Numbered from the stretch's first letter, positions 33,499-61,479 are shown. The stretch: DNA of 64,000 bases from Patescibacteria group bacterium (GCA_041664365.1 JBAYKW010000001.1:144862-208861), one strand, 5' to 3'. Translations and numbers: made by a program. The notes: generated by a model from the sequence alone, not told the origin.

Positions 33499-33580
33499 TG
33501 GTATAATATGATAATATAAAGATATTAAACTATTCTTTAGTATTGTAATAATTTATTGAAAATCAGGCATTTCTCATAAT

Positions 33581-34138: not shown

Positions 34139-34148
34139 ACGAAAACTT

Positions 34149-34604: not shown

Positions 34605-34612
34605 TTTATAAA

Positions 34613-35053: not shown

Positions 35054-35117
35054 TAACCTGTTAACATTGACAGCTAGATTTAGTTGATATATACTTGATA
35101 TGTTAAGTAAATATTAA

Positions 35118-35555: not shown

Positions 35556-35587
35556 TATTATTAGCTAATTAGCATTATTGTTAAAAC

Positions 35588-36523: not shown

Positions 36524-36584
36524 TTATTGATTATTAATCAAAATTTATAAGGATTAATTTTCTAGGAAGGTCTAGTCATAATTT

Positions 36585-36947: not shown

Positions 36948-36958
36948 AAGAAAGATAC

Positions 36959-37447: not shown

Positions 37448-37449
37448 AT

Positions 37450-38187: not shown

Positions 38188-38203
38188 ATACAAAAATATT
38201 CAT

Positions 38204-38635: not shown

Positions 38636-38701
38636 GTATTAGAGCGTTGCCGGTTTAGGTTCACGATGATATAATTACTGATAATATTTAATAAAATTTC
38701 A

Positions 38702-39661: not shown

Positions 39662-39681
39662 ATTAAATATTCCTAAATTAC

Positions 39682-40209
39682 TTGAAAGTATTAGATTTCC
39701 CGTCAATTCGGCAAACATATAAATGGGACTGCGGAGCAAACGTCGTCCAATCTCTTTTGGAGTATTACGGCATTGACCGGCGGGAAGATAATACAATTAA
39801 ATCAGTCGGAACAGATCAGAGTGGCACATCGGTTATTCAAATACAGAAAGCATTTAAAAAGTTCGGGTTAAATGTATATGCCGGTGAAATGATGGTAGAT
39901 GATATAAAAAAATATATCGATAATAAAATTCCGATAATTATACCGCTTCAGGCCTGGACAAATAAGAAAAAAGTAAATTGGGAGGAAAATTGGACGGACG
40001 GGCATTACGTTGTGGTTATCGGTTATGATCAAAAGAAAATATATTTTGAGGACCCTTCATCTTTTAATCGCACATATCTTGCATATGCAGAGCTAAAAAA
40101 ACGCTGGCATGATGAAGGAGTGGACGGAAAAAAATATATCAACTGGGGGATTGCCGTTTACGGAAAAAAACCGGTTTATAACTCCAGAAAAATAAAGCAC
40201 ATGGATTAA
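39682..40209 (+). CDS. papain-like cysteine peptidase, C39-like (Peptidase_C39_2-type)
   Basis: QTYKWDCGANVV suggests a catalytic Cys in a Q...C context. GHYVVVIGYD gives a downstream His. Confidence 0.5.
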   Translation: MKVLDFPSIRQTYKWDCGANVVQSLLEYYGIDRREDNTIKSVGTDQSGTSVIQIQKAFKKFGLNVYAGEMMVDDIKKYIDNKIPIIIPLQAWTNKKKVNWEENWTDGHYVVVIGYDQKKIYFEDPSSFNRTYLAYAELKKRWHDEGVDGKKYINWGIAVYGKKPVYNSRKIKHMD

Positions 40210-42086: not shown

Positions 42087-42097
42087 TATTATTAGTT

Positions 42098-42135
42098 AAA
42101 ATCGACTGTAAAATTGAGCAGTCGGTTTTGATTTA
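42098..42135 (+). terminator. rho-independent terminator after typA
   Basis: AAAATCGACTG...CAGTCGGTTTT hairpin plus T-run. Confidence 0.55.
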
Positions 42136-42138
42136 CAG

Positions 42139-42167
42139 TTGATTTTTAAGCTAAAATATGCTAAGAT
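42139..42167 (+). promoter_or_regulatory. sigma70-like promoter (TTGATT-17-TAAGAT) for paralog 1; duplicated at 42844-42872
   Basis: ttgatttttaagctaaaatatgctaagat. The same string with 4 substitutions lies upstream of paralog 2. Confidence 0.5.
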
Positions 42168-42196
42168 ACGGTCATCTAAGTATTAATCAAAATATT

Positions 42197-42688
42197 ATGG
42201 CAGATCCAAAAATGCCAATGCCTGGCACACCAGATGATAATATGCCTGACGAGACTTCAGTTGATGAGAATAATCAGGAGACAATGGAGGCGGAAGTAAA
42301 CGAAAAAATAAGAGTATTTTTTGCTGATATAACAGAGTTGCGAGCTACCGGTGAGTTTGCTAGGAAAGACATATATAGTCAGTATTTTGACCAAGTATTT
42401 GATTCAATAAGTAAAAGTAAAGGTGAATATGTAAATTTTGATCATGTTGCTAACCAAGTTGACAATGCTACAGATATAATAAGAAGACTTCAGTTTAAAT
42501 GCGAAGCCGAAGCGCGTCATAAAAAGGATGAAGGAAATGATGTTATTAGTGAAAAAATGAATCAATTAGTAAAAAGAGCAGAAGAGATCTTACATCAGAT
42601 AATGGTAATAGCTTATAGAAAACATTACGATCTAGATTATGATGAGGTCCAGAGGGCATATGCAGAAATTCAAAAAGACGAAGAATGA
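42197..42688 (+). CDS. hypothetical acidic protein, M-A-D-P-K-x-P N-terminal family, paralog 1
   Basis: Starts MADPKMPMPG. The C-terminal RAEEILHQIM is shared with paralog 2. The ORF-track start at 42158 lies inside the conserved promoter string and is rejected. Confidence 0.4.
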   Translation: MADPKMPMPGTPDDNMPDETSVDENNQETMEAEVNEKIRVFFADITELRATGEFARKDIYSQYFDQVFDSISKSKGEYVNFDHVANQVDNATDIIRRLQFKCEAEARHKKDEGNDVISEKMNQLVKRAEEILHQIMVIAYRKHYDLDYDEVQRAYAEIQKDEE

Positions 42689-42843
42689 CATTTTGATGAA
42701 AATTTAAACAATAGTAAGAAAGATCAAGTGAAATTGTAACTCATAGAATTGGTGATTGATAGCAATCATCATGATCAGTAATCTTAGAAAAGAATAGTCA
42801 GTAAAATAGACCACAATAGTAGGTGGTCTATTGTTTTGTAGCT

Positions 42844-42872
42844 TGATTTTTAAGCTAAAATGTGGTAAACTT
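42844..42872 (+). promoter_or_regulatory. duplicated sigma70-like promoter (TTGATT-17-TAAACT) for paralog 2
   Basis: ttgatttttaagctaaaatgtggtaaact. Near-identical to 42139-42167. Confidence 0.5.
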
Positions 42873-42899
42873 CACTTAATTAAGTATTAAAACAATATT

Positions 42900-43307
42900 A
42901 TGGCTGATCCAAAACTACCAACATATGGGCAGGATAAAGAGTCTGAAAATAATGTGGAAGTAATGAAGTCATTAGTAAGTCAAAAAACAGAATCGCTATT
43001 TTCTGATTTAATGGAATCATATTCAGAAGATGAAGATCTTAACCTGGAGGATTATCATAGTCAGAATTTTGAATATTATCTAAATAGAATAAGACAATAT
43101 AGTTATATATATCCAGATGGACAGAATCCTGATATGGAGGAAGATGAGCGTTCCTTTTTAAAAAGAATTAAAACTATATGTGAAATGGAAAAAGAATTTC
43201 AGGCAGAAAATATGAATGAAGTTCTGCGAAATAAATATCAAAATTTTACTGAAAGAGCCGAAGAAATTTTACAACTGATAGGTGCCATAATTGATGCGTC
43301 AAAATAA
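42900..43307 (+). CDS. hypothetical acidic protein, M-A-D-P-K-x-P family, paralog 2
   Basis: Starts MADPKLPTYG. C-terminal ERAEEILQLIGAI. Confidence 0.4.
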   Translation: MADPKLPTYGQDKESENNVEVMKSLVSQKTESLFSDLMESYSEDEDLNLEDYHSQNFEYYLNRIRQYSYIYPDGQNPDMEEDERSFLKRIKTICEMEKEFQAENMNEVLRNKYQNFTERAEEILQLIGAIIDASK

Positions 43308-49095: not shown

Positions 49096-49120
49096 TTAAT
49101 GTAATTACCGCTATCTCTCT

Positions 49121-49153
49121 GTCATTATCGGGCTTGGCCCGGTAATCCAAAAA
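49121..49153. repeat. palindromic repeat unit B1 (GTCATTATCGGGCTTGGCCCGGTAATCCAAAAA)
   Basis: Hairpin CGGGC-ttgg-CCCGG. About 75% identical to unit A. Confidence 0.7.
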
Positions 49154-49160
49154 CAATCAA

Positions 49161-49205
49161 TGGATCCCCGGACCACCTTCTGCGAAGGCGTCCGAGGATG
49201 ACAAT
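49161..49205. repeat. palindromic repeat unit D (GGATCCCCGGACC-loop-GTCCGAGGATGACA) with internal hairpin CCTTC-tgc-GAAGG
   Basis: Same terminal arms as C1 with a longer loop. Confidence 0.6.
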
Positions 49206-49242
49206 ACTGGGGTTTACTGACATGTCAAATACAATTTTTAAT

Positions 49243-49272
49243 GTCATCTTCGGACTTGGTCCGGAGATCCAC
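49243..49272. repeat. palindromic repeat unit A1 (GTCATCTTCGGACTTGGTCCGGAGATCCAC)
   Basis: Exact 30-nt copy recurs at 49645-49674. Hairpin CGGAC-ttg-GTCCG. Confidence 0.8.
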
Positions 49273-49281
49273 GAATAGAAT

Positions 49282-49569
49282 ATGAACCAATACTACGTTT
49301 ACATAATGGCAAGTAAAAAGAATGGAACGCTTTACATAGGCGTTACGAATAATATTATCAGAAGAGTATATGAGCATAAGAATAATGAAGTTGAAGGATT
49401 TTCGAAGAAATATAAAGTGCATAGACTAGTCTATTACGAGCAAACAGAAAATGTGGAGAGTGCATTGAATCGTGAAAAGCAATTAAAAAAGTGGAATAGA
49501 GAGTGGAAAATTAATTTAATACAAAAAGAAAATCCGAATTGGAAAGATTTATATAACGAGCTAATATAA
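49282..49569 (+). CDS. GIY-YIG nuclease-family protein (UPF0213/YhbQ-like)
   Basis: YYVYIMASKKNGTLYIGVTNNIIRRVYEHK contains the GIY...YIG...R...E catalytic motifs. At 95 aa it resembles E. coli YhbQ. Confidence 0.75.
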   Translation: MNQYYVYIMASKKNGTLYIGVTNNIIRRVYEHKNNEVEGFSKKYKVHRLVYYEQTENVESALNREKQLKKWNREWKINLIQKENPNWKDLYNELI

Positions 49570-49575
49570 AGACAT

Positions 49576-49626
49576 GGATTCCCGTTCCCCGATCAAGTCG
49601 AGGACAAGCTTTGCGGGAATGACAAA
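49576..49626. repeat. palindromic repeat unit C2 (GGATTCCCG-long loop-CGGGAATGACA)
   Basis: Same arms as C1 with an expanded loop. Confidence 0.6.
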
Positions 49627-49644
49627 CAATGTAGTATAACAAAT

Positions 49645-49674
49645 GTCATCTTCGGACTTGGTCCGGAGATCCAC
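49645..49674. repeat. palindromic repeat unit A2 (exact copy of A1)
   Basis: gtcatcttcggacttggtccggagatccac is identical to 49243-49272. Confidence 0.8.
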
Positions 49675-49689
49675 AAACAATCTAAAACT

Positions 49690-49722
49690 GTCATTCTCGG
49701 GCTTGACCCGGGAATCCAAAAA
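49690..49722. repeat. palindromic repeat unit B2 (GTCATTCTCGGGCTTGACCCGGGAATCCAAAAA)
   Basis: Differs from B1 at 4 positions. Confidence 0.7.
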
Positions 49723-49748: not shown

Positions 49749-51203
49749 ATGAAAAATAAAGAAGTCAGAGTCCGAATTGCTCCATCACCAACCGGCTCCT
49801 TGCATTTAGGAACGGCGAGGTCCGCTTTGTATAACTATTTATTTGCCAAAAGAGAAGGCGGAACATTTATTCTGCGCATAGAAGATACCGACCTGGAACG
49901 CTCTGAAGAAAGATTCACCAAACAAATTATAGAGGGTTTGGAATGGCTAGGCATAGAGTGGGACGAAGGTCCGACATTAGACGGAAAAGAAAAAGGCAAA
50001 TATGGTCCGTATTTCCAGACCAAACGAACCGCAACTTATGAAAAATATATAAAACAGCTTCTGGATGAAGACAAGGCGTATTATTGCTACTGCACCAAAG
50101 AAGAGCTGGAAGCGGAAAGAAAAGCGATGGGAGAAAAAGGTGAAGCGCCGATCTATAGCGGTAAATGCGCGCATTTATCAAAAGAAGAAAAAGAAGCATT
50201 TGAAAAAGAAGGAAGGAATTCAATCATCCGATATCGTGTGCCGGAAAGTACGATCAAATTCAAAGACATGATCAGGGGCGATATGAGTTTTGAAGCCGGG
50301 CTGATGGGCGATATTGCCGTGGCACGCGATGTTAAAACTCCGCTCTACAATCTGGCAGTCGTGATCGACGACTACATGATGGAGATATCGCACGTGATCC
50401 GTGGAGAGGATCATTTATCCAACACACCAAAGCAGATATTAATGACCGAGGCGCTGGGATTTCCCGTGCCGGAATTTGGGCATCTGCCTTTGATTCTCAA
50501 TGAAGATAAAACCAAACTTTCCAAACGCAAGACCAAGGTAACGATAGATGATTATAAAGAAGAGGGCTATCTGCCGGAAGCAATCTTAAACTTTGTATTA
50601 CTTCTCGGTTGGAACCCGAAAACCGAACAGGAAATGTTTACTCTGCCTGAGATGGTTCATGTATTCAATATCGGCGGTGTGCACAAGGGTGGTGCGGTTT
50701 TCGCCAAGGATAAATTGGACTGGATCAATTCCCAATATCTGCGCAAACTTTCTCCCGACCAATTCCTGGAACTTGCTTTACCATTCTTAGAAAAAGCGGG
50801 GATTAATATTAGCGACAAAGAATATGTGAGGAAAGCAATCGTGTTGGAACAGGAGCGGATTAAAAAACTTTCCGACCTGCCCGAAATGGTGAAATTCTTC
50901 TTCAATGACATTTCCTACGACCCGAAACTTTTGGTCTGGAAAAAATCCGATCCGGAAGTTACAAAAGTAAATTTAAAATTGGCTTTGGAATTCTTTGAAA
51001 GCCTGGATGAAAAAGACTGGTCCGAGGAGAAAATAGAAAATGGATTGATGAAACTGATTGAAGAAAAGGGATTGAAAAACGGTGAAATCCTCTGGCCGAT
51101 CCGCGTGGCTTTGACGGGGGAAGAAAAATCCCCAAGTCCTTTTGAAGTCGCGGGGGTTTTGGGTAAGGAGAGGGTGGTGGAGAGGTTAAATAATGTTGTT
51201 TAA
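49749..51203 (+). CDS. gltX: glutamate--tRNA ligase
   Basis: RVRIAPSPTGSLHLGTARSALYNY (HIGH region), KLSKRK (KMSKS) and a C-terminal anticodon-binding domain. Confidence 0.9.
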   Translation: MKNKEVRVRIAPSPTGSLHLGTARSALYNYLFAKREGGTFILRIEDTDLERSEERFTKQIIEGLEWLGIEWDEGPTLDGKEKGKYGPYFQTKRTATYEKYIKQLLDEDKAYYCYCTKEELEAERKAMGEKGEAPIYSGKCAHLSKEEKEAFEKEGRNSIIRYRVPESTIKFKDMIRGDMSFEAGLMGDIAVARDVKTPLYNLAVVIDDYMMEISHVIRGEDHLSNTPKQILMTEALGFPVPEFGHLPLILNEDKTKLSKRKTKVTIDDYKEEGYLPEAILNFVLLLGWNPKTEQEMFTLPEMVHVFNIGGVHKGGAVFAKDKLDWINSQYLRKLSPDQFLELALPFLEKAGINISDKEYVRKAIVLEQERIKKLSDLPEMVKFFFNDISYDPKLLVWKKSDPEVTKVNLKLALEFFESLDEKDWSEEKIENGLMKLIEEKGLKNGEILWPIRVALTGEEKSPSPFEVAGVLGKERVVERLNNVV

Positions 51204-51220: not shown

Positions 51221-51817
51221 ATGAAGTTTGAAGTTGAAAAAAGAAGTAAAATAGATGATGCTGAAGAAATAGAAAGAGTTAAGGAATACTTATCTGCACA
51301 CGGAGAGTACCTGGGCTCAAAAATGATGCGCTCTTTTCTATTTCGGAATCCTACATCTCTACGAATTCGTCTGATTGAAGGAAAGGATTCAGCATTGGTT
51401 ACAATAAAGAAAGGTGAATATGCTGATCCGGCGATGGAAGAAGAGGAGTATGAAGTACCATTAACAGAATTAGATGCTTTTATTGAGCAAAAAAAAGTTG
51501 AAGGCTATGAGGCATGTTCAGAAGTAAATACTTTTCGCGAAACATATATTTTAAATGGATTGAAAATTGAGATAAATGATATTGATTCTTTGGGTTTGAT
51601 TATTGAGATAGAGGCATTGACTGAAGATAAAGATGAAATAGATGGTTTAGAAGAACGAATTCGTGAGACAATGCAGGAATTAAATTTGCCGGAACTCGAT
51701 CCATCTGAATATAAATTGATGATGGACGCAATGCAGGACGAAACAAATAGGCCAGTAAGTGAGCAAGTTTTTACAGTTGATTGGGATGAAGATATTAATG
51801 AGAAGAAAATTAAGTAA
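51221..51817 (+). CDS. CYTH-domain protein (triphosphate tunnel metalloenzyme, CyaB/ThTPase-like)
   Basis: N-terminal MKFEVEKRSKI resembles the CYTH ExExK motif. Acidic beta-strand pattern throughout. Confidence 0.45.
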   Translation: MKFEVEKRSKIDDAEEIERVKEYLSAHGEYLGSKMMRSFLFRNPTSLRIRLIEGKDSALVTIKKGEYADPAMEEEEYEVPLTELDAFIEQKKVEGYEACSEVNTFRETYILNGLKIEINDIDSLGLIIEIEALTEDKDEIDGLEERIRETMQELNLPELDPSEYKLMMDAMQDETNRPVSEQVFTVDWDEDINEKKIK

Positions 51818-52374
51818 TGAGTCTAATGAGTAGAACCTGGAAAAAATTGAATTCAAAGATTGTATATAGTAACTCTTGGATAAAAGTCCATGAGGATCAA
51901 GTTTTGAAGCCGGATGGTAAGGAAGGTATCTATGGTTATCTGGAAAAAAACCAAGCTTGCTTTGTGATAGCGCTGGATAATGAAGAAAATATCTATCTGG
52001 TAAAACAGTTCAGATATGCTCTGCAAAAAACAATTCTGGAATTACCGGCCGGTACGGTAAATAATGAAGATATCGCTGATAGAGCAAAAGCGGAACTTTT
52101 GGAAGAAGCAGGAATAGAAGCAAAGGAATGGAAAAGGCTGGGTGGGTTTTACGTAGCACCAGGGCATGAATCTACTTATATTAATGTTTACCTCGCGACG
52201 GATTTAGATTTATCCAAACTATCTACCAGTGGGCAAGATGATGATGAATCAATATTGGAGATAGTTAAAGTAAGTCAGCCAGAATTAAAGAAGATGTTAA
52301 CAGATGGAAAGATTGAATGCGGAATATCGATAGCCGCTTTGAATCTGTTTTTTCTGAGTCATAATAAAAGTTAA
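51817..52374 (+). CDS. Nudix hydrolase (ADP-ribose pyrophosphatase NudF-like)
   Basis: Nudix box AGTVNNEDIADRAKAELLEEAGI. N-terminal substrate-recognition beta-domain. Confidence 0.7.
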   Translation: MSLMSRTWKKLNSKIVYSNSWIKVHEDQVLKPDGKEGIYGYLEKNQACFVIALDNEENIYLVKQFRYALQKTILELPAGTVNNEDIADRAKAELLEEAGIEAKEWKRLGGFYVAPGHESTYINVYLATDLDLSKLSTSGQDDDESILEIVKVSQPELKKMLTDGKIECGISIAALNLFFLSHNKS

Positions 52375-52384
52375 GATTGTGAGT

Positions 52385-52460
52385 ATGAAAAAGATTGAGA
52401 AAAAAGTTTGGCAGGAATATTTTCAGTAAATATTGGATGGTAACAAAAAATTAAAAACTT
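52385..52460 (+). pseudogene. decayed 5' fragment of the DUF3850 gene (intact copy at 53479)
   Basis: atgaaaaagattgagaaaaaagtttggcaggaatattttcagTAAatattggatgg... is ~88% identical to 53479-53550 and translates MKKIEKKVWQEYFQ* with an in-frame stop. Confidence 0.7.
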
Positions 52461-52478
52461 TATTGTTAAATAAATATT

Positions 52479-53420
52479 ATGCTAGAAAAATCAACCCAGG
52501 AGAAAGAGCAAAAACGTATTGTTAAAAAAATTAGCGGTTTTACAATATTAGGAATATTTTTGACTGTAGGTTCCTTGCCGGTTTGGTTTGGTGGTAATAT
52601 GGTAGGATACTTGCTACGTTTTGAAGAGTGGTATGCCTTCAATATTTTTAATTATTTTGCATTTGTCATGCTTCTTGTTGGTGTGTATTTCCTCATCAAG
52701 GCAAACCAAAAAAGCCAACAAAAAAATATACCAACAAATTCTACTAAGTATGCATTTATCGCTGCATCTTTTTGTCTATTGATAATATTCTTAACAATAG
52801 TGTTTCCCAGTTTAAACACAATTATTAAAAAAAACATAACTCCTTTATCAACATTTGTTCTTGATGACGGATCATTTATTAGTGTACGTGAATATAGAGA
52901 ATACTCAAAAAAATTGATTGGCATTTTACCTGGAAATAATTTAAATGAGGATAGAGTTGATGTTGTAAGAGCACGTGTTGTAAACAGCAAATACGAATTT
53001 ATTTGGGAAAATGTATATTTGAGAAAATCAACACAAGGTTTAAGTGTGACGCCAGGTACAGCAATAGAGGGTGCAAACATTATGGAAGAGATTTCTAATA
53101 GAATTCCAAATGTTCTGCATTTGGATAACTATGATGGTAAGACGATTAGGAAATGTTCAGATGGAAGTATTCAAATTGCCTGGGAAAAAACAAGTCGGGA
53201 TAGTTCCCCAATAAATGATGCACATATAGATATTGATACAGGAAAAACTGTTGCATTTCAGAATGTTGCATTTCCACATCTGGAATTTGAGCAACCATTA
53301 TGTGACGAAACTATACCTGAAAGTATATGGCAAGATATGAGTCACTGTCTTGGAAACAGCCAGATCGAAACATTATCTGGCAAAGAGTGTTCCGAGGCTG
53401 TCTTTAAGACTTTGCAATGA
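52479..53420 (+). CDS. hypothetical membrane protein (2-3 N-terminal TM helices plus a soluble domain)
   Basis: 313-aa ORF with N-terminal hydrophobic helices. No recognised motif. Confidence 0.3.
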   Translation: MLEKSTQEKEQKRIVKKISGFTILGIFLTVGSLPVWFGGNMVGYLLRFEEWYAFNIFNYFAFVMLLVGVYFLIKANQKSQQKNIPTNSTKYAFIAASFCLLIIFLTIVFPSLNTIIKKNITPLSTFVLDDGSFISVREYREYSKKLIGILPGNNLNEDRVDVVRARVVNSKYEFIWENVYLRKSTQGLSVTPGTAIEGANIMEEISNRIPNVLHLDNYDGKTIRKCSDGSIQIAWEKTSRDSSPINDAHIDIDTGKTVAFQNVAFPHLEFEQPLCDETIPESIWQDMSHCLGNSQIETLSGKECSEAVFKTLQ

Positions 53421-53478
53421 GAATCATTATTAGTAAATATAGATATTAGTTTATATTAGAGTATATAATACCCAGAAA

Positions 53479-53742
53479 ATGAAAAAAATTGAGAAAAAAG
53501 TTTGGCCGGAATATTTTCAGCAAATACTGGACGGTGACAAGAAATACGAACTTCGTCTTGCTGATTTTGACTGCCAACCCGGTGATGTATTGCTATTAAA
53601 AGAATGGGACAATAAAACCAAAAAATATACCGGCAGGGAAATTGAAAAGGAAGTAACTTCCATTTTGAAAACAAAGGATGTAAAATTTTGGAATGAAGAG
53701 GAAATAGATAAACATGGGTTTCAGATTATTTCTTTTAAGTAA
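53479..53742 (+). CDS. DUF3850 (ASCH/PUA-like) domain protein
   Basis: KVWPEYFQQILDGDKKYELRLADFDCQPGDVLLLKEWD matches the DUF3850 consensus (W.EYF..V..G.K.FE.R.ND..FQVGD.L.L.E). Confidence 0.55.
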   Translation: MKKIEKKVWPEYFQQILDGDKKYELRLADFDCQPGDVLLLKEWDNKTKKYTGREIEKEVTSILKTKDVKFWNEEEIDKHGFQIISFK

Positions 53743-53788
53743 TGTAATAATCACGTTTAAGAAATTAGATTATTAAATAAATAGTTAT

Positions 53789-54286
53789 ATGGAAAAATTC
53801 AGTCTGCCGATTATTTCCGCGATTATTGAGAGGCAAAAAGACGGAGAAACAGAAATATTGGTTCAAACTAGGTGGAAACCGGAAGAAGATCCTGTATATA
53901 CGGGATGTTTGGAAATTCCGGCAGGAAAAATAAGGGAATTTGAAAATGTCTATGATGCTTTAAATAGAGAGGTGAAGGAAGAAACGGGGTTGAAAATAAC
54001 CAGTATTTTTCCAGATATTAAAACAAAAACGCATTCTCCAAAGGATGACGGATCGTTCGCTTTTCAGCCGTTTTGCTGCCAGCAACAAACAAAAGGAGGA
54101 CGACCATGGATCGGTTTCGTTTTTATTTGCAATGTTGAGGATAAGACACCATTAAAGGAGGGGGATAATACAAGAGATATTCGTTGGATAAAAAAATCTG
54201 AATTGAAGAGAATTTTTGAAGAAACACCAGAAAAGATATTTACCCTGCAATTAGGGGTTTTGGATTATTACTTTAATAAAAGTTAG
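53789..54286 (+). CDS. Nudix hydrolase
   Basis: Nudix box AGKIREFENVYDALNREVKEETGL. Confidence 0.65.
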   Translation: MEKFSLPIISAIIERQKDGETEILVQTRWKPEEDPVYTGCLEIPAGKIREFENVYDALNREVKEETGLKITSIFPDIKTKTHSPKDDGSFAFQPFCCQQQTKGGRPWIGFVFICNVEDKTPLKEGDNTRDIRWIKKSELKRIFEETPEKIFTLQLGVLDYYFNKS

Positions 54287-54321
54287 GTATTATTTTGTGA
54301 TTAAAACATTCAAGGCATTAC

Positions 54322-54418
54322 ATGATCAAAATCAGAAAACACTTGCCGAAAGATATTCCGTACCGTGTTTTATGGTTAATTACCACAAGGTAAACAGGTT
54401 CACTGGTGAGGGAGTTTG
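54322..54418 (+). pseudogene. decayed 5' fragment (~100 nt) of the GNAT acetyltransferase gene (intact copy at 56592)
   Basis: atgatcaaaatcagaaaacacttgccgaaagatattccgtaccgtgttttatggtt... is ~88% identical to 56592-56695. It translates MIKIRKHLPKDIPYRVLWL then frameshifts (1-nt deletion) to a stop. Confidence 0.7.
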
Positions 54419-54476
54419 CTTCGAAACCACAATAAAATGATTTTACTAATTATTTAATGATGTGTTCATAGAATTT

Positions 54477-54953
54477 ATGGCATTAATATACGAGTCAATA
54501 AACTATATAGTAGAAGCAGTAGAGAAACCTCATGTGGATAGAAATGATGGTGGTCATATTAAGATATATCCAAAAGTTAGAATCATAGATAGGCAGCAAC
54601 TTTCTCCAAAACTGGCTATTGAATTGATGAGATTGACAATGGTTGTCGGAGAGGCAATGAAGATCGCAATGGCCAAAAGTGGTATTAAAATAATGAGAGT
54701 TAATTATCAGGATATGGGTAATTGGGCTTTTAAAAAAAATGAAAAACCATATTTTCATATCCATATTTATGGGAGAGCAAAAAATGCAAAATTTCAACCA
54801 TTTCAGGAAGCAGTCAAACTGCCTGATAGAGCTTCTGGATTCTATGATAAATTTATTCCCTTAAATCCTGTAGATATCAAGGGCATAAGAGCTGAGATTA
54901 ACAGGCTAATAAAAGAAAATAAATATTCTGAGTCTGATTGGGGAATTCTATAA
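54477..54953 (+). CDS. HIT-like domain protein (histidine-triad-like FHIHIYGR motif)
   Basis: YFHIHIYGRAKN resembles the HIT HxHxH(xx) loop. The ORF-track start at 54462 is a GTG, so the first ATG is used instead. Confidence 0.35.
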   Translation: MALIYESINYIVEAVEKPHVDRNDGGHIKIYPKVRIIDRQQLSPKLAIELMRLTMVVGEAMKIAMAKSGIKIMRVNYQDMGNWAFKKNEKPYFHIHIYGRAKNAKFQPFQEAVKLPDRASGFYDKFIPLNPVDIKGIRAEINRLIKENKYSESDWGIL

Positions 54954-54971
54954 AAAATATATGAATAAAAT

Positions 54972-55880
54972 ATGAAATTCAAACAGATAGTATTATTAGA
55001 CAAGGTGGGACTTTCTGATAACGCGGTTGAGAAACTTGCGAAATTTTCTGATAGCCCGATAAAGACATTTTCCTCTGATCCTGCGGATGAAGCGGAAGTG
55101 TGTAAAAGAATCTCGGATGCTGACTGCATCATGCTGACCTGGCGGACATCAATATCAAAAGAAGTGCTTGCAAAGTGTGAGAACCTGAAATTCATCTGCC
55201 TTTGCTCTACTAATTCCAATAATATTGATCTGAATGAATGTGCAAAAAGAGGTATCACAGTTTCCAACGTGCGCGATTATGGAGACGAGGGAGTTGTGGA
55301 GTGGATTATCATGCAGTTATTGCTCCTGTTCAGAGGAGTCGGAAAAAATCAATATAAAGGGTTTAGTTCAGAACTAAGCGGGAAAACAATCGGGATATTT
55401 GGTATGGGTGTTGTAGGAAAACTGCTTGCCAAGGCAGCAAAAGGTCTTGGTATAAATGTTTTGTATAACAGTAAAACCAGGAATTCTGATCTGGAAAAAC
55501 AGGGGATACAGTTTGTGGAGAAAAGCAGTCTGCTGGCGAAGAGTGATATCATTGGCCTGCATACACCGAAGAATGTAAAGATTTTGGACAAATCGGACTT
55601 CGATCTGATGCAAGGAAAAATTCTCGTTAATACAACCCTGGGAAAAGCATTTGATTCAAGCGATTTTATGAGATGGATTAAGCGTGAAAATAATTTTGCG
55701 ATATTTGATGGAGCGTCAGAATTTGGCGCGGAATTTGAGGGATTGGATAGAGTAATATATTCAGATGTAGTCTCTGGTTTAACAAATGAAGCAATAGAAA
55801 GATTGAGCCAAAAAACCTTAGATAATGTAGCCTCATATATTTCGGGTAATCCGATTAATGTAGTCACAGGTTTAAAATAA
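54972..55880 (+). CDS. D-isomer-specific 2-hydroxyacid dehydrogenase family protein
   Basis: GIFGMGVVGKLLAKAAKGLGINVLY (GxGxxG NAD-binding motif) plus downstream catalytic R/E/H positions. Confidence 0.8.
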   Translation: MKFKQIVLLDKVGLSDNAVEKLAKFSDSPIKTFSSDPADEAEVCKRISDADCIMLTWRTSISKEVLAKCENLKFICLCSTNSNNIDLNECAKRGITVSNVRDYGDEGVVEWIIMQLLLLFRGVGKNQYKGFSSELSGKTIGIFGMGVVGKLLAKAAKGLGINVLYNSKTRNSDLEKQGIQFVEKSSLLAKSDIIGLHTPKNVKILDKSDFDLMQGKILVNTTLGKAFDSSDFMRWIKRENNFAIFDGASEFGAEFEGLDRVIYSDVVSGLTNEAIERLSQKTLDNVASYISGNPINVVTGLK

Positions 55881-55892
55881 ATATAATAATTC

Positions 55893-55945
55893 ATGCTCAA
55901 AATCCGAAAAAATTTACCGAGAGATATTCCATGCCGGTTTTTTTA
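55893..55945 (+). pseudogene. decayed 5' fragment (~50 nt) of the GNAT acetyltransferase gene
   Basis: atgctcaaaatccgaaaaaatttaccgagagatattccatgccggttttt is ~85% identical to 56592-56641. It translates MLKIRKNLPRDIPCRFF*. Confidence 0.65.
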
Positions 55946-55958
55946 AACAAAAAAATAT

Positions 55959-56588
55959 ATGAATAAAAAAAGAATACTATGTTATGGCGATTCCAATACT
56001 TGGGGATGTGTCCCTGGAACCAGGTTTGAAAGATTTTCTGAGGAAATCAGATTTCCAAAGCGCCTCCAAAAACTATTAGGGACTGATTTTGAAATTATTG
56101 AAGAAGGACTATACAGCCGGACACTGGCATCTGAATATGATCGACCGAATAAAGAGGGTAGAAATGGGAGTACGTATTTTGTCCCATGCCTTTTATCTCA
56201 TGATCCGCTAGATTTGGTAATTATAATGCTTGGAACTACAGAATTAAAAGCAGAATTCAATAATTCGGTGGAAGAAATTGGTAGATATCTGGAGGACTAT
56301 TATATTAGAGTTATTTCGAAAATCAAATATCTGACTCGAGATGAATCTCCTGAATTATTAATTATATGTCCACCAATAATTAACGAGAGTCTTACGTCCA
56401 AAAGATATGCCGGTGGGGAGGAGAAATCGAAACAGTTAGCTGGGGTGTATTCAAAAATTTCCAATAGTAACAAATGTGCGTTTATTGACGCAAGTAAACT
56501 AATGGTTGGTTCTGACGGAGTTCATATGACGGAAGAAAGTCATAAGAAACTTGCGGAAATGATTGCATATGAAATAAATAAGAAGTAA
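55959..56588 (+). CDS. SGNH/GDSL-family hydrolase
   Basis: ILCYGDSNTWG (block I GDS), block III GTTE and block V DGVHMT. Confidence 0.75.
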   Translation: MNKKRILCYGDSNTWGCVPGTRFERFSEEIRFPKRLQKLLGTDFEIIEEGLYSRTLASEYDRPNKEGRNGSTYFVPCLLSHDPLDLVIIMLGTTELKAEFNNSVEEIGRYLEDYYIRVISKIKYLTRDESPELLIICPPIINESLTSKRYAGGEEKSKQLAGVYSKISNSNKCAFIDASKLMVGSDGVHMTEESHKKLAEMIAYEINKK

Positions 56589-56591
56589 TTT

Positions 56592-57101
56592 ATGCTCAAA
56601 ATCAGAAAACATTTACCGAAAGATATTCCGTACCGTGTTTTATGGTTGAATGACCATAAGGTAAACAAGTTTACTGGTGAGGAAGTTTGGGAAGAGACAA
56701 CACTGAGGAAACAAAAACAGTGGTTTGCCGAATATCAAAAGTCTGACGAAAAACGTTTTTTTACCATCTGTGACGGAACGAAGCCGGTTGGATTCATGGG
56801 ACTGTCTAAAATATCCAAGATAAATAAAAATGCGGATTTGTTTGTTGCCATCGGTGATGCTGATTACCGCGGAAAAGGCGTAGGAAGATTAGTAATGACC
56901 TGGATAATTGATTACGGTTTTAATAAGCTCAAACTGCATAAAATTTATTTGAACGTCTATGAGGATAATATTCCGGCAGTTAATTTATATAAATCTTTGG
57001 GCTTTGTCGTAGAGGGGAAGATAAAAGATGATGTTTTCTTTGGAGGGAAATTCCATAACACTTTGTACATGGCAAAATTTTATAAACGATCTAAAAAGTA
57101 A
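56592..57101 (+). CDS. GNAT-family N-acetyltransferase
   Basis: YRGKGVGRLVMTWIIDYGF...LKLHKIYLNVYEDNIPAVNLYKSLGF contains acetyl-CoA-binding motif A (R/QxxGxG/A). Confidence 0.75.
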   Translation: MLKIRKHLPKDIPYRVLWLNDHKVNKFTGEEVWEETTLRKQKQWFAEYQKSDEKRFFTICDGTKPVGFMGLSKISKINKNADLFVAIGDADYRGKGVGRLVMTWIIDYGFNKLKLHKIYLNVYEDNIPAVNLYKSLGFVVEGKIKDDVFFGGKFHNTLYMAKFYKRSKK

Positions 57102-57117
57102 TTTGAAATTTACCAAT

Positions 57118-57576
57118 ATGCGCCACAAAGCTTTTTCTTCCATCGTCAATATACTTACGCTTTGCATAATCATCGGAGCAGTAAGTTTTTATTCAATTGA
57201 TCATTCTGAATGGACCGGAATTATTCTTATTCTATTATCCGTTATCTGCGTAGTTTCATTGTTGCCGTTTAAAATAAAATTAAAATCATTGAAACCAGAT
57301 ATTATATTCGGTTTGATTGATAATGGCATTCTCGCCGTGATGGCGATATTCGGCGGACATTTTGCCGGGGTGGCTGGCGCGGTTATGGGTGGAGTGGTTG
57401 GCAATGCCATCACGGACGGTATCGCGGGCATCTTTGAGGGACGGTCGGCGGAAAAACTGCGCCAACAGCTGATACCGGAAGAGCGTACTATGCTGAAATC
57501 AGCAGTCGGCAAAATGGCCGGGTGTCTTTTGGGTGCCGGGATAATTTTATTAATTGCGGATTTATTTAACTTTTAA
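57118..57576 (+). CDS. membrane protein with glycine-zipper segment
   Basis: Two TM helices followed by GGHFAGVAGAVMGGVVGNAITDGIAGIFEG. Start placed at the ATG at 57118 (MRHKAFSS), after the GNAT stop. Confidence 0.35.
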   Translation: MRHKAFSSIVNILTLCIIIGAVSFYSIDHSEWTGIILILLSVICVVSLLPFKIKLKSLKPDIIFGLIDNGILAVMAIFGGHFAGVAGAVMGGVVGNAITDGIAGIFEGRSAEKLRQQLIPEERTMLKSAVGKMAGCLLGAGIILLIADLFNF

Positions 57577-57578
57577 AT

Positions 57579-57983
57579 ATGTCAGAAAAAAGAGTTTCAG
57601 CAGTGATTATCAGTGGAGATAAACAAATATTGTTAGTCCATAGGATAAAAAATGGCAGTGAATATTTTGTTTTGCCCGGCGGGAGTGTTGAGACGGAAGA
57701 AGATCATATATCTGCCCTGATCAGAGAAGTAAAAGAGGAAACAAATTTAGATGTGAAAATTGGAAAAGAACTTTGGCAGGTAAAAAGTGATGCTGATCGG
57801 AGAATTCAACATATATTCCTAGTTTCAAAATATGCTGGTAATCTGGAATTAGGCAGTCCGGAAAAAGAAAGGCAATCAGAAAGTAACAAATACTTTTTGG
57901 AGTGGCGTAAGATTGAAGATATTAGCAATATTGATTTTTATCCAGAAGAAATTAGATTAAACATTATTAAAGAATTCGCATGA
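57579..57983 (+). CDS. Nudix hydrolase
   Basis: Nudix box GGSVETEEDHISALIREVKEETNL. Confidence 0.7.
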   Translation: MSEKRVSAVIISGDKQILLVHRIKNGSEYFVLPGGSVETEEDHISALIREVKEETNLDVKIGKELWQVKSDADRRIQHIFLVSKYAGNLELGSPEKERQSESNKYFLEWRKIEDISNIDFYPEEIRLNIIKEFA

Positions 57984-58567
57984 GCACAGTAACAACCATT
58001 ATCGAAGGATATGTTCGCGATGAAGGCGAAGATGAATACGCCTCATCTTCAGTTACGCTGGTTCGTGATGGCAATATAAATATTCTCGTGGATGTCGGTA
58101 TGGACCGGGAGCGCCTGCTGGATGCGCTGAACAATGAAAATTTAAGACCGATTGATATTGACTTTGTTGTTTTGACTCATACCCATTTGGATCATTGTTT
58201 ACTCACTGGAATATTTGAGAACGCAAAAATTTTGGATGTCTCAAGCATCTATTCTTTTGACGGTAAAATTACCGAACATAAAGGTAAAATTCCCGGAACA
58301 GAAATAGAAATAATTCCTACACCCGGTCACGACCATCACCACTCGGCAGTACTCGTTAAAACTGAGGAATTCGGCATGGTAGCAATCGTCGCGGATCTCT
58401 TCTGGTGGGAAGACGGCCAGGAGCAGAAAACTGATCGCATGAGTTTACTCAATCTGAAAGATCCGTATCTGAATGACGGTGTTATTTTGAGAATGAGCCG
58501 TGAAAAAGTTCTAAAAATGGCTGACTATATCATTCCTGGTCACGGCAAACCATTTAAGCTACAATAG
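57980..58567 (+). CDS. MBL-fold metallo-hydrolase
   Basis: VLTHTHLDH (HxHxDH), downstream PTPGHDHHH and final PGHG. Confidence 0.75.
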   Translation: MSTVTTIIEGYVRDEGEDEYASSSVTLVRDGNINILVDVGMDRERLLDALNNENLRPIDIDFVVLTHTHLDHCLLTGIFENAKILDVSSIYSFDGKITEHKGKIPGTEIEIIPTPGHDHHHSAVLVKTEEFGMVAIVADLFWWEDGQEQKTDRMSLLNLKDPYLNDGVILRMSREKVLKMADYIIPGHGKPFKLQ

Positions 58568-58598
58568 ACTTGAATAGGGTAATTAAACTTCATAAAAA

Positions 58599-58916
58599 AT
58601 GTCAATTGAAGGCGAGCAAAACGTAGATCGGGACCGAAAACCGCAAGCATTTATCCGCTTCGGTCTGCCGGGCCATGAGACGGAATATGTGTTCAAAACA
58701 CAGGCGAATAAGTACAGCGAAGCTGAAACGATGTCGGACGAATGGGAATACGCAATTACGCAACAACTGGGCGCGGAATGGGCTGTGATGAATCGCGGTG
58801 AAAGAATAGAAATAATCCCTCCGCGTAGTCAGCGGACTCCAGAAACGGATCAAAAAGTTAATCAAGTGATAATGTCTGTAATTGGGGATGGTTACGAATT
58901 TCCTGAGGAAGAATAA
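58599..58916 (+). CDS. hypothetical acidic protein
   Basis: 105-aa ORF with no recognised motif. Confidence 0.3.
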   Translation: MSIEGEQNVDRDRKPQAFIRFGLPGHETEYVFKTQANKYSEAETMSDEWEYAITQQLGAEWAVMNRGERIEIIPPRSQRTPETDQKVNQVIMSVIGDGYEFPEEE

Positions 58917-58920
58917 TAGT

Positions 58921-59568
58921 ATGAAACCAAAAAAACAAAATGAACCGCTCAGCGCACTAACCCATTTGATTGGGGCGATTTTATCTGTTGTTGCCTTGGT
59001 TCTGATGGTTGTATTTGCGTCAATGAAGGGAACGGCAGTACATGTCATTGGTGTTTCTATTTTCGGCGCCAGTTTAATAATTCTTTATACAACCAGCACG
59101 TTGTATCATTTTTTTCCGCAGGAAACGAAAGTTAAAACTGTTTTCCAGCGTTTGGATCATGCCATGATCTATTTTTTAATTGCCGGCTCATATACGCCAA
59201 TTACTTTACTGATGCCCCAGAGAGTATGGGGCTGGAGTATTTTCGGTGTTGTCTGGGCTATTGCAATCGCTGGAATAATTATGAAAAGTCTCGGCATCAA
59301 AATGACCGGCTGGCTTTCCGTGGTTATGTATATCGGAATGGGCTGGATGCTCCTGATTGCAATTCGCCCACTGGCTGAGTGGCTTTCTCCCGGTGCTTTG
59401 ACGTGGCTGTTTGTTGGTGGAGTGATGTACACTGCTGGATGCCTTTTTTACGCGCTGGACAAATACGTTCCGCGTACCAGATGGTTCGGGATGCACGAAA
59501 TATTCCATCTCTTTGTAATCGCCGGAAGCTTCAGTCATTTTTGGATGATGATTAAATACGTTGTATAA
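58921..59568 (+). CDS. hemolysin III / PAQR-family channel protein
   Basis: 7-TM protein. YHFFP, HAMIYFLIAGSYTP and HLFVIAGSFSHFW are hlyIII motifs. Start at the Met after the upstream stop. Confidence 0.75.
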   Translation: MKPKKQNEPLSALTHLIGAILSVVALVLMVVFASMKGTAVHVIGVSIFGASLIILYTTSTLYHFFPQETKVKTVFQRLDHAMIYFLIAGSYTPITLLMPQRVWGWSIFGVVWAIAIAGIIMKSLGIKMTGWLSVVMYIGMGWMLLIAIRPLAEWLSPGALTWLFVGGVMYTAGCLFYALDKYVPRTRWFGMHEIFHLFVIAGSFSHFWMMIKYVV

Positions 59569-59608
59569 TTTTAATACTTTTTGATTAGAAATCAGTTTGA
59601 AAAAAAAT

Positions 59609-60040
59609 ATGGATAATGTTTGGATAATTTACGCGTTGCTTTCGGCTTTTGGCGCGGCGCTTGTAGCCATTTTCGGAAAAATTGGTTTGCAGGGGATTGA
59701 TACAAATGTCGCGACCGCGATCAGGGCAGTAGTCATGGCACTTTTTTTGATTGGTATAATCTTTATTCAAGGCAAGCTGGTTGATATCAAACCGGTTCTG
59801 ACGAATCACAAAGCACTGCTTTTTATTGTTTTGAGCGGAGTGGCCGGAGCGGTGTCGTGGCTTTTCTATTTCATTGCGCTGAAAAACGCCAAGGTGTCGC
59901 AGATTGTACCGATTGACCGCCTGAGCGTAGTATTTGCTCTGCTACTGGCATTTATTATCTTGGGTGAAAAGATATCACTACAGGCGTGGATTGGCGCGGT
60001 ACTGGCGGTGATTGGTGGCATACTGATTGCGCTGGGATAA
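59609..60040 (+). CDS. small EamA/DMT-family transporter (single EamA domain, 4 TM)
   Basis: Four TM helices with an EamA-like pattern ...LSAFGAALVAIFGKIGLQGID...ATAIRAVVMALFL. The ORF-track start is a TTG, so the first ATG is used. Confidence 0.5.
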   Translation: MDNVWIIYALLSAFGAALVAIFGKIGLQGIDTNVATAIRAVVMALFLIGIIFIQGKLVDIKPVLTNHKALLFIVLSGVAGAVSWLFYFIALKNAKVSQIVPIDRLSVVFALLLAFIILGEKISLQAWIGAVLAVIGGILIALG

Positions 60041-60060
60041 AAGATTAATTTAATAAATAT

Positions 60061-60678
60061 ATGCTGAATATTTACGTAGCACGGCACGGGCAGGATGAGG
60101 ATAACCGGAGGGGAATCCTGAACGGCAGGAGAAACATGGGTCTGACCAGTCTGGGGATTGAGGAAGCAATATCGGTCGGGAAGAGGATCGCAGAGCACCA
60201 AATAAACTTTGATCAGATTTATTCCTCTCCCTTAAAAAGGGCCATGCATACGGCAGAACTGATTGCTTCTGAAGCCGGCGGTCCCCAGCCGCAAATTATC
60301 GAAGACCTAATTGAGCGGGATTTCGGCGTTATGACCGGGCTTCCGCATTCCAGCATTATCCCGATGTGCTCGCCGGATGTAATTATTTCGGAACATGTGG
60401 ACTACTTTCTTAATCCGGAAAACGGCGAAACATTTCCACAACTGATTGAAAGAGGGAAAAGGGTAATCAATGATCTACACATAGCCCACCCGGAAGGAAA
60501 TATACTGTTGGTTACTCATGGCGACACAGGTATGATGATGTATAATGAATTTTACAAACTGGAATGGATGAAAACTTTGAAAGATTTCTATTTTCATAAC
60601 GCGGAACTCATTTTGCTTTCCAAAGATACATCGCCTGAAAATCCGCATGTATTTAGAATTAATGATTACAAAAAGTAA
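60061..60678 (+). CDS. histidine phosphatase family protein (phosphoglycerate-mutase-like)
   Basis: IYVARHGQDEDNRRGILNG is the RHG catalytic motif. LLVTHGDT downstream. Confidence 0.75.
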   Translation: MLNIYVARHGQDEDNRRGILNGRRNMGLTSLGIEEAISVGKRIAEHQINFDQIYSSPLKRAMHTAELIASEAGGPQPQIIEDLIERDFGVMTGLPHSSIIPMCSPDVIISEHVDYFLNPENGETFPQLIERGKRVINDLHIAHPEGNILLVTHGDTGMMMYNEFYKLEWMKTLKDFYFHNAELILLSKDTSPENPHVFRINDYKK

Positions 60679-60681
60679 CCA

Positions 60682-61479
60682 ATGAAGATTATCAGCTTAA
60701 ATGTCGGGATTAAGATTGACAACTCAAAACAAGTTGGTGAGTTTATTCAATCACAGAATCCGGATATAGTTGCATTTCAGGAAATTATCCGAAATTTGGA
60801 TGAATCAGTTTATGATATTTACCGCTCAAAAGAACATATCGAGAAAATAATCGGTAAAGAACTGCCGTATTCTTTTTTCGGTCCGCTTTTTGTTGCTAGA
60901 GATTTTACGAAGGATGGAAAGATTCATAGAGATTTTGGCGGTTACATAGAACAGGGGAATGAGGTTATCTCAAAATTTCCGATTAATGAAGCAACAAACG
61001 AATTTTATTATAAAGCGTATTCATACGATAAAGACCGCACGAACTTTGCAACAGAGGATAATTCAAGGGCACTACAGGTTGTTGATTTGGATATCGCTGG
61101 TCAAAAATTGATTATTATCAATGTGCACGGAACATACTCAAAAGATAAGCAGGATAGCGAAAGATCACTCGCGCAGTCAAAATATGTAATTAAAGTAGCG
61201 TTAAGGAAAAAATTGCCAACTATAATAGTCGGTGATTTTAACCTGTTTCCGGAGACAAACAGTATTAAAATTATCAACAGAAAATTCAGAAATTTAGTTG
61301 TTGAAAATAAAATAAAAACAACCAGGCCTAAATTTGATGATGGTTTAGATAAAGGAGAAAATGTCGTGGATTATATTTTTGTTAATGATCAGATCAAAGT
61401 TAATAAGTTTGAGCTTATTGATACCAATATTTCAGACCATCTTCCAATAATACTGGATTTCGATATTATAAAAAAATAA
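60682..61479 (+). CDS. endonuclease/exonuclease/phosphatase (EEP) family protein
   Basis: N-terminal IISLNVG...IVAFQEI and C-terminal SDHLPI are EEP catalytic motifs. Confidence 0.75.
   Translation: MKIISLNVGIKIDNSKQVGEFIQSQNPDIVAFQEIIRNLDESVYDIYRSKEHIEKIIGKELPYSFFGPLFVARDFTKDGKIHRDFGGYIEQGNEVISKFPINEATNEFYYKAYSYDKDRTNFATEDNSRALQVVDLDIAGQKLIIINVHGTYSKDKQDSERSLAQSKYVIKVALRKKLPTIIVGDFNLFPETNSIKIINRKFRNLVVENKIKTTRPKFDDGLDKGENVVDYIFVNDQIKVNKFELIDTNISDHLPIILDFDIIKK

Follow-up and report, generated by a model that had tools for sequence, protein, structure and literature searches.

We describe here a block of small genes at positions 51221-61479 of a 64,000-nt stretch (the window) of a Patescibacteria metagenome-assembled genome (MAG). 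All genes of the block lie on the plus strand and form an unbroken run behind gltX, the glutamyl-tRNA synthetase (GluRS) gene, as seen from the open reading frame (ORF) listing and the Pfam results (Table 1). The best explanation, to which we give a probability of roughly 0.7, is that the block presently fills a flexible-genome hotspot flanked by core genes in a lineage of the Candidate Phyla Radiation (CPR), and not a pathway. This hotspot is bounded on the left by LigB-hyp473-LigT-WecG-gltX and on the right by an alpha-2-macroglobulin (A2M) gene with Memo and DUF1653, and it holds different defence systems in five relatives. Comparison of the arrays found at this site shows that their genes are gained, lost and exchanged singly.

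The window comes from a metagenomic contig of 392 kb (ENA ERZ27249449), and its closest gltX relatives among species-representative genomes are Patescibacteria MAGs. Relatives were gathered with gltX in the species-representative genomes, with the hemolysin-III family gene (HlyIII) in JGI metagenomes, and through HlyIII homologues in a large protein collection. The gltX gene anchored L003, L004, L005, L006 and more distant genomes, and four of the arrays reached through HlyIII also hold gltX. The synteny set consists of the window array and seven related arrays at the same site, eight in all, the relatives being designated here by L numbers. Domains were called with Pfam on the window proteins and defence genes with PADLOC-DB 2.0, and more specific protein names were sought by means of NCBIfam equivalog cut-offs.

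Conserved flanks and a variable interior

Each of the eight arrays differs from all the others. Together they comprise 67 gene families, 40 of which are singletons, and HlyIII alone is near-universal (7 of 8 arrays in the tally; the L005 contig ends inside its HlyIII copy). An initial annotation of this DNA had read the block as a toolbox accumulated by insertion and not as a pathway. Since an identical gene order was not found in relatives, this reading survives the synteny comparison: the non-pathway character and the gene-level turnover stand, with the addition that loss and allele exchange contribute beside insertion.

In contrast to this variable interior, the borders are conserved. The left flank, from LigB to gltX, is common to the seven related arrays and remains syntenic down to a genome with 52% GluRS identity; where gltX is present in the related arrays, its product is 78-95% identical to that of the window. 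On the right, the window and L132 have in common the 1780-aa A2M gene and, behind it, Memo and DUF1653; at least the A2M gene is shared by L094 and L003. A2M comes directly after DUF5655 in L003 and L094, and directly after the endonuclease/exonuclease/phosphatase (EEP) gene in L132.

The nearest relative also varies with the gene considered: it is L131 for GluRS, L003 for LigT and the GNAT acetyltransferase, and L094 for HlyIII, while the copies of the 152-aa membrane protein (TM152), EEP, the 105-aa protein (hyp105) and DUF3850 are nearest to those of L132. This gene-by-gene switching indicates recombination among lineages, beyond vertical loss. Moreover, the ratio of nonsynonymous to synonymous divergence (dN/dS) is 0.01-0.26 for every array gene with an orthologue, indicating that the array genes are held by purifying selection.

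Gene-start scars and a possible route of turnover

Spacing within the block ranges from a 4-nt overlap to 46 nt, apart from three bigger gaps of 104, 190 and 78 nt. These three gaps are occupied by scars, i.e. remnants of the start of a gene that stands intact further downstream (scars 1 to 3 in Table 1). In all three, homology starts at the ATG of the source gene. The claim that the genes are separated only by decayed gene-start repeats is therefore correct for 3 of about 18 junctions, the others being overlaps or spacers of 2-46 nt. A fourth, weak scar was detected in L094 (L094:913-950), where the DUF3850 start lies upstream of Nudix1. The topology is the same in all four cases, X/Y-start/C/Y: a remnant, one or more intervening genes, and then the intact gene Y. 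When every array gene was searched against every array, no 3' or internal remnants were found, only 5' ones.

Each remnant is at least as similar to the gene start of this genome as to that of any orthologue. In the 110-nt scar, identity falls from 95% to 80% along the repeat, in parallel with the differences among GNAT orthologues; this scar may derive from a diverged allele and not from slow neutral decay. The scars are not assembly artefacts, since they were reproduced in independent Logan and JGI assemblies. Scar 1 is present at 100% in the Logan contig L138, which matches 52215-54276 exactly, and scar 2 lies in the JGI contig L136, which matches 53154-55267 at 99.9%. Scar 3 is found at 100% in the Logan contig L135, which spans 54348-56645 with the GNAT-start repeat at both ends.

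The other compared junctions are clean: their breakpoints fall within the short stretch that separates a stop codon from the next start codon. L003, which lacks the 2-hydroxyacid dehydrogenase gene, retains the initial 10 nt of this gene in its spacer between HIT-like and GNAT; this remnant is probably a deletion scar. Short "ATGAATAA" spacer motifs were also considered as extra scars and were rejected, because they could not be told apart from the generic AT-rich leader.

From these junctions, a route of turnover can be proposed. The array consists of co-oriented, tightly packed and independent single-gene units between core genes, which would be exchanged by homologous recombination between diverged array variants. 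Neighbouring genes would serve as homology anchors, leaving clean junctions. Occasional events would leave 50-110 nt of the start of the downstream gene before the intervening gene or genes. Two processes could produce such a scar: Campbell-type integration of a circularised fragment via the 5' end of gene Y, or a homology-anchored illegitimate join between two array variants, with one side homologous and the other illegitimate. No dedicated recombinase would take part. In transformable bacteria, Campbell-type insertion-duplication and homology-facilitated illegitimate recombination duplicate part of the homologous anchor, so that this partial copy flanks the insert. The arrangement seen here, three times in the window and once in L094, is of this kind. 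For CPR bacteria, such a process is putative, as are the donor, the intermediate and any role of DNA uptake.

Other repeats of the window proved to be of a different nature. Upstream of gltX, a 95-aa GIY-YIG gene (49282-49569) is flanked by four GC-rich hairpin repeats of 36 nt (49118-49722) with the core GTCATCTTCGGACTTGGTCCGGAGATCC, two copies being identical over the core. The gene is present in L004 and L005 and not in L003 or L085, part of the repeat region being kept in L003; gene and repeats may be a small mobile or homing-type element. A 106-nt terminator-hairpin and promoter-like module is duplicated at 84% (13202-13305 and 14031-14136) upstream of two consecutive minus-strand genes. 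At 42069-42218 and 42774-42921, adjacent genes of 176 and 135 aa, without family, share their terminator/promoter region and first codons, and are likely tandem paralogues. Finally, a 187-nt inverted match of 69% (9799-9985 and 38412-38598) relates a minus-strand gene at about 9.8-10.2 kb to a plus-strand gene at 38204-38635; these are probably distant paralogues.

Gene content, defence genes and competing readings

All 14 domains listed in the initial annotation were found by Pfam in the given order and on the plus strand, although the HIT domain fell below the cut-off. The order of its gene list was right, but the genes for the 313-aa, 152-aa and 105-aa proteins were omitted, the homologues of which show dN/dS of 0.05-0.24. 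Similarly, the block that it delimited is real, but the variable array runs past 61479 to DUF5655 and the radical-SAM gene, up to A2M. Its remark that comparable arrays are reported from reduced genomes fits the source, a Patescibacteria genome, which is reduced. Phosphohydrolase-type genes make up 8 of 19 genes in the block and 12 of the 66 window genes outside it, a modest enrichment (Fisher p = 0.035). They are abundant throughout the 64 kb, which hold eight Nudix genes in all.

Table 1. Genes of the array and its borders, gene-start scars, defence genes of related arrays, and gene order in the related arrays (MBL, metallo-beta-lactamase fold; 2HADH, 2-hydroxyacid dehydrogenase; HisPhos, histidine phosphatase; RT, reverse transcriptase; TM, transmembrane; GC3, GC content at third codon positions).
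Feature	Position	Strand	Basis	Occurrence and remarks
gltX (glutamyl-tRNA synthetase)	49749..51203	+	Pfam tRNA-synt_1c, Anticodon_2	left anchor of the variable array
CYTH protein, 198 aa	51221..51817	+	Pfam CYTH, E 4.5e-11	first slot after gltX; cyaB model below cut-off; top PDB match archaeal CYTH PH1819 (7e-8); no PADLOC hit; elsewhere only in L005 (77% identity)
Nudix hydrolase 1, 185 aa, ADP-sugar pyrophosphatase-like	51817..52374	+	Pfam NUDIX; precomputed NDPSase_N	NudE/YffH-type models below cut-off; shared with four other arrays
313-aa membrane protein, no family	52479..53420	+	ORF, ENA gene call; no Pfam family above cut-off	sole homologue in L005 (36% identical); GC3 0.25
DUF3850/ASCH-like protein, 87 aa	53479..53742	+	Pfam DUF3850, E 7.5e-18	orthologues in L094, L132; dN/dS 0.05-0.08
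Nudix hydrolase 2, 165 aa	53789..54286	+	Pfam NUDIX, E 3e-15	singleton family, this genome alone among the eight arrays
HIT-like protein, 158 aa	54477..54953	+	sub-threshold Pfam HIT	
D-2-hydroxyacid dehydrogenase family protein, 302 aa	54972..55880	+	Pfam 2-Hacid_dh, 2-Hacid_dh_C	no NCBIfam equivalog cut-off passed; orthologues in L131, L132
GDSL/SGNH esterase, 209 aa	55959..56588	+	Pfam Lipase_GDSL_2	elsewhere only in L005 (73% identity)
GNAT acetyltransferase, 169 aa	56592..57101	+	Pfam Acetyltransf_1, Acetyltransf_3	shared with four other arrays; source, by its 5' end, of scars 2 and 3
152-aa membrane protein (TM152), no family	57118..57576	+	ENA gene call; no Pfam hit	orthologues in L003, L131, L132; dN/dS 0.05-0.11
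Nudix hydrolase 3, 134 aa	57579..57983	+	Pfam NUDIX, E 1.9e-15	ATG at 57579 backed by L094 orthologue; absent from L003, L131
MBL-fold hydrolase, 195 aa, MBLAC1-like	57980..58567	+	Pfam Lactamase_B	top PDB match human MBLAC1 (1e-14)
105-aa protein (hyp105), no family	58599..58916	+	no Pfam or PADLOC hit	orthologues in L131 (52%), L132 (76%); dN/dS 0.10-0.19
hemolysin-III family membrane protein (HlyIII)	58921..59568	+	Pfam HlyIII, E 2e-51	
single-domain EamA transporter, 143 aa	59609..60040	+	Pfam EamA	94-98% identity in L003, L094, L132; dN/dS 0.01-0.02
histidine phosphatase, branch 1, 205 aa	60061..60678	+	Pfam His_Phos_1, E 9e-38	cobC and PGM models below cut-off
EEP family protein, 265 aa	60682..61479	+	Pfam Exo_endo_phos	62-78% identity in L094, L132, L084, L085, L127; absent from L003
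DUF5655 protein, 135 aa	61494..61901	+	Pfam DUF5655	last co-oriented array gene; in L003, L094; absent from L132
radical-SAM protein, 695 aa	61972..64000	-	Pfam Radical_SAM	cut by window end
scar 1	52385..52451	+	first 67 nt of DUF3850 gene, 90% identical to 53479-53545	upstream of 313-aa gene
scar 2	54322..54431	+	first 110 nt of GNAT gene, 86% to 56592-56702; 95% over first 56 nt	upstream of HIT-like gene
scar 3	55893..55948	+	GNAT start, first 50 nt 86% to 56592-56641; about 75% over full 56 nt	upstream of GDSL gene; more decayed than scar 2
first slot after gltX, L085	L085:2988-4478		AbiP2, E 1e-191	full-length AbiP2 reverse transcriptase
first slot after gltX, L131	L131:4003-5790		RT_UG13a, 3e-68	UG13-class defence RT
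first slot after gltX, L005	L005:2244-3434		SoFic, 1.5e-41	
first gene seen in L094 array	L094:16-897		PDC-S33, 2e-94	RelA/SpoT-like
first slot after gltX, L132	L132:1529-2323		PDC-S45, 1e-14	trypsin-like
L003 array				gltX, 3 unknowns, Nudix1, HIT-like, GNAT, TM152, MBL, HlyIII, EamA, HisPhos, DUF5655, A2M
L094 array				RelA/SpoT, Nudix1, DUF3850, GATase, GNAT, Nudix3, MBL, HlyIII, EamA, HisPhos, EEP, DUF5655, A2M
L132 array				gltX, trypsin-like, Nudix1, HIT-like, DUF3850, 2HADH, GNAT, TM152, Nudix3, MBL, hyp105, HlyIII, EamA, HisPhos, EEP, A2M
L131 array				gltX, RT, HIT-like, 2HADH, TM152, MBL, hyp105, HlyIII (contig end)
L005 with L084 array, first part				gltX, Fic, small TM, CYTH, Ser-hydrolase, GDSL, asparaginase, TM protein, dCMP deaminase, unknown
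L005 with L084 array, rest				methyltransferase, nitroreductase, two unknowns, AdoMet decarboxylase, MazG, HlyIII, EEP, DUF5655
L085 and L127, longer arrays				RT, Nudix, MazG, P-loop kinases, rhodanese, HopJ, cation efflux, LMW-PTP, cupin, HD, GyrI-like, NAPRTase, others

Behind DUF5655, the co-oriented run meets a converging radical-SAM gene, which lies between DUF5655 and A2M and is found in this genome only among the compared arrays. Its GC content is 0.543 (54%) against about 0.38 elsewhere, which, together with its opposite orientation and its presence in one genome only, suggests foreign acquisition. On a contig that continues past the window end, the 1781-aa A2M-like protein (L121:12757-18102) has Hint/intein-type hits (PT-HINT, Hom_end_hint). 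Finally, a second co-oriented run of small genes occupies 32665-40209 of the window, with FTR1, three tandem Nudix genes (33581-35053), MarR, an epimerase, DUF1801, HAD, SDR, a Na/Ca exchanger and a C39 peptidase. FTR1 is also the first array gene of L127, so that cassettes appear to move between this run and the gltX array.

Ten proteins were tested against NCBIfam equivalogs (NudE/NudF, MutT, CyaB, CobC, Xth, AiiA and others), and all were far below the cut-offs; thus only superfamily-level functions can be assigned. The units are for the most part hydrolases, transferases and membrane proteins of small size, each standing alone. The most likely role of the array, which we infer at that level, is accessory clean-up and salvage of nucleotides and metabolites, together with envelope functions. 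The name "HIT-like" used in the initial annotation rests on a match that does exist but stays below the Pfam gathering cut-off (18.6 against 21.5 bits, E 0.003). Its motif is H-I-H-I-Y, with the third His of H-x-H-x-H-x-x replaced, and this form is kept in the alignment of four orthologues. Neither single-sequence nor profile searches of the PDB confirmed a HIT fold for 54477-54953, and the single-sequence AlphaFold2 model was unusable (pLDDT 47.5). Identity between the allele found here and its orthologues in L003, L131 and L132 is 64-68%, and these orthologues agree with each other at most positions where it differs. This divergence and the low GC3 of the allele (0.26) would fit its replacement by an allele of a more distant lineage.

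PADLOC recognised no known defence system in the window, where only generic Nudix matches and partial hits with E > 1e-5 were obtained; this profile check agrees with the statement of the initial annotation that none is recognisable. Five relatives carry AbiP2, a UG13-class RT, SoFic, PDC-S33 or PDC-S45 at the head of the array (Table 1), and the L085 array contains a PDC-M70B homologue further along. At this locus, no PADLOC defence gene was found in the window, L003 or L127. About one defence gene can be recognised per array, the other cargo consisting of membrane proteins and small enzymes. In this CPR lineage, the slot directly behind gltX is a landing site for defence genes. The link to defence islands, left open in the initial annotation, is strengthened by these genes of the relatives, which it had missed; for the window itself it is a possibility. 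In L003, the defence slot (L003:11479-12872) contains three consecutive genes (165, 161 and 147 aa) without Pfam or PADLOC match, a candidate uncharacterised system.

Given this landing site, the block itself might be a defence or counter-defence island, in which some of the small nucleotide-processing enzymes (CYTH in the defence slot, Nudix, HIT-like, MBL, EEP and histidine phosphatase) would act as uncharacterised single-gene immune effectors or would degrade nucleotide immune signals. We consider this unlikely. A high defence density, possibly including undetected systems, has been reported for CPR genomes (PMC12259885), two Nudix proteins match the PADLOC candidate PDC-S07 (5e-11 for Nudix 2, and 9e-15), and the MBL orthologues received a weak Anti-Pycsar_Apyc1 flag. 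However, the Nudix matches are generic, and apart from them no PADLOC model reached a strong score with full coverage in the window. Identification of the MBL protein as Apyc1 is not supported, its nearest solved relative being MBLAC1. Moreover, many cargo genes look metabolic or envelope-related (hydroxyacid dehydrogenase, GDSL, EamA, HlyIII, asparaginase, NAPRTase, cation efflux, rhodanese), and similar small enzymes occur elsewhere in the window, outside the hotspot. Guilt by association also counts for little in a general flexible island.

A more speculative proposal, to which we give somewhat less credence, treats the gltX-A2M interval as a recombinase-independent gene-capture platform of CPR bacteria, with 5' gene ends as anchors, and as a cargo reservoir of undescribed single-gene immune and counter-immune functions. 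Such cargo would include the CYTH, several Nudix, HIT-like, MBL, EEP, MazG, HD and deaminase genes, beside the AbiP2, DRT, SoFic and PDC genes of the relatives. If this were true, the slotting of genes at start-codon boundaries would explain the exclusively 5' scars.

Could differential loss alone account for the arrays? A large ancestral array would then have been inherited vertically, and the remnants would be leftovers of full-length paralogues. The relative order of shared genes is kept in most arrays, the window array is approximately the union of those of L003, L094 and L132, and L003 keeps the 10 nt of dehydrogenase gene start described above. However, 40 singletons among 67 families would require an ancestral array of more than 60 genes in a genome of about 1 Mb. 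The order of some genes is also swapped (HIT-like and DUF3850 between the window and L132, MazG and family f34 between L005 and L085), and the radical-SAM gene combines a foreign GC content with the opposite orientation. Random decay of paralogues predicts something other than 5' ends placed upstream of an intervening gene followed by an intact copy, and the nearest relative differs by gene. Loss as the sole process is thus doubtful, and we hold it to be quite improbable.

Several points nevertheless weigh against the hotspot reading, or limit how far it can be taken. Of the 18 genes in the block, 17 have a counterpart in one or more relatives, and these are mostly collinear, so that much of the pattern could be due to differential loss; loss and allele exchange matter as much as insertion. 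Several arrays are incomplete because of contig ends or the 10-kb flank limit. Synonymous divergence (dS) from the nearest relatives is 0.55-1.3, approximately a species- to genus-level distance, at which the rate of turnover is uncertain and the history of gains and losses cannot be reconstructed. Four scars are too few to settle the 5' bias or to choose between Campbell-type integration and an illegitimate join. As for the proposed role of the cargo, no protein passed an equivalog cut-off.

A conserved housekeeping operon serving one pathway, e.g. nucleotide or cofactor salvage, would account for the co-orientation, the tight or overlapping genes and the several proteins that act on nucleotides. 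Synteny contradicts it, as the content differs in every relative, and the absence of identical arrays between conserved flanks excludes a stable operon or pathway. Indeed, the relative with the highest GluRS identity (94.6%) lacks at least 8 of 14 genes upstream of its contig end, and no protein is the equivalog of a pathway enzyme. This explanation is very improbable.

Sedentary chromosomal integrons are long arrays of co-oriented, mostly promoterless single genes, variable between strains and rich in acetyltransferases, Nudix proteins and small enzymes. The gltX array resembles them in its co-orientation, its single-gene and apparently promoterless units, its acetyltransferase, Nudix and small-enzyme content and its strain variability. 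Unlike integrons, it has no IntI, attI or attC, and its unit borders are start codons or short spacers. No attC-like structure or structured inverted repeat was found at gene ends, and spacers of 2-46 nt are too short for attC sites. Among the precomputed Pfam hits, which concern the gene calls of nearly the whole window and of a further 10 kb, there is no integrase, transposase or relaxase; the window contains no tRNA or tmRNA, no Rfam family and no flanking direct att repeats. A motif at array gene starts was rejected as a recombination site, since the region from -30 to +12 of 18 array genes is like that of 65 others, both being AT-rich and mostly without a Shine-Dalgarno sequence. Promoter and terminator scans were uninformative, promoter counts equalling those of shuffled sequence and terminator counts being only slightly above them. 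Altogether, there is next to no likelihood that the block is a cassette array of an integron-like kind or borne by a mobile element, or that it is a degraded prophage, integrative and conjugative element or other integrative island.

Relation to known systems and significance

The core defence hotspots of Pseudomonas aeruginosa are likewise flanked by core genes and lack a single mobile-element family (Johnson et al. 2023, PMC10250203). Like cDHS1 and cDHS2 in that study, the gltX locus is a variable region between the same core genes, with varied defence systems that are not tied to one mobile-element family, with mostly unannotated genes, and with NUDIX and alpha/beta-hydrolase genes nearby. 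It differs from them in that nearly all units are single small genes in one orientation, separated by spacers of 2-46 nt. Moreover, defence genes are seen here mostly in the first slot, the window has none, and the host is a CPR bacterium with a genome of about 1 Mb. The present comparison also spans species-to-genus divergence (dS of at least 0.55), whereas the P. aeruginosa comparison concerned isolates of one species.

In groundwater Patescibacteria, islands and genes transferred individually have been reported in the hundreds, most of the exchange taking place inside the phylum (PMC12455944). The gltX locus is a concrete instance of such islands. Unlike here, those islands were predicted by composition (IslandViewer, MetaCHIP), and that work describes no gltX hotspot, gene-by-gene mosaics or gene-start scars. 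The locus is thus a well-resolved instance of the reported Patescibacteria islands and of CPR defence density, and not a new kind of system. What is distinctive is its single-gene granularity, its extreme compaction, the gltX anchor and the 5' gene-start scars.

The genomes of CPR bacteria are tiny, and dependence on hosts is assumed for these organisms; the places and ways in which they keep accessory genes are poorly known. The hotspot described here is easily found by means of its gltX anchor, and is a place to mine for CPR defence enzymes or enzymes that degrade nucleotide signals. It also calls for caution in annotation: a run of Nudix, HIT or CYTH-type genes in a genome of this sort should not be labelled a pathway. 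Finally, the gene-start scars are a natural record of the entry of genes into a streamlined genome without mobile-element machinery.

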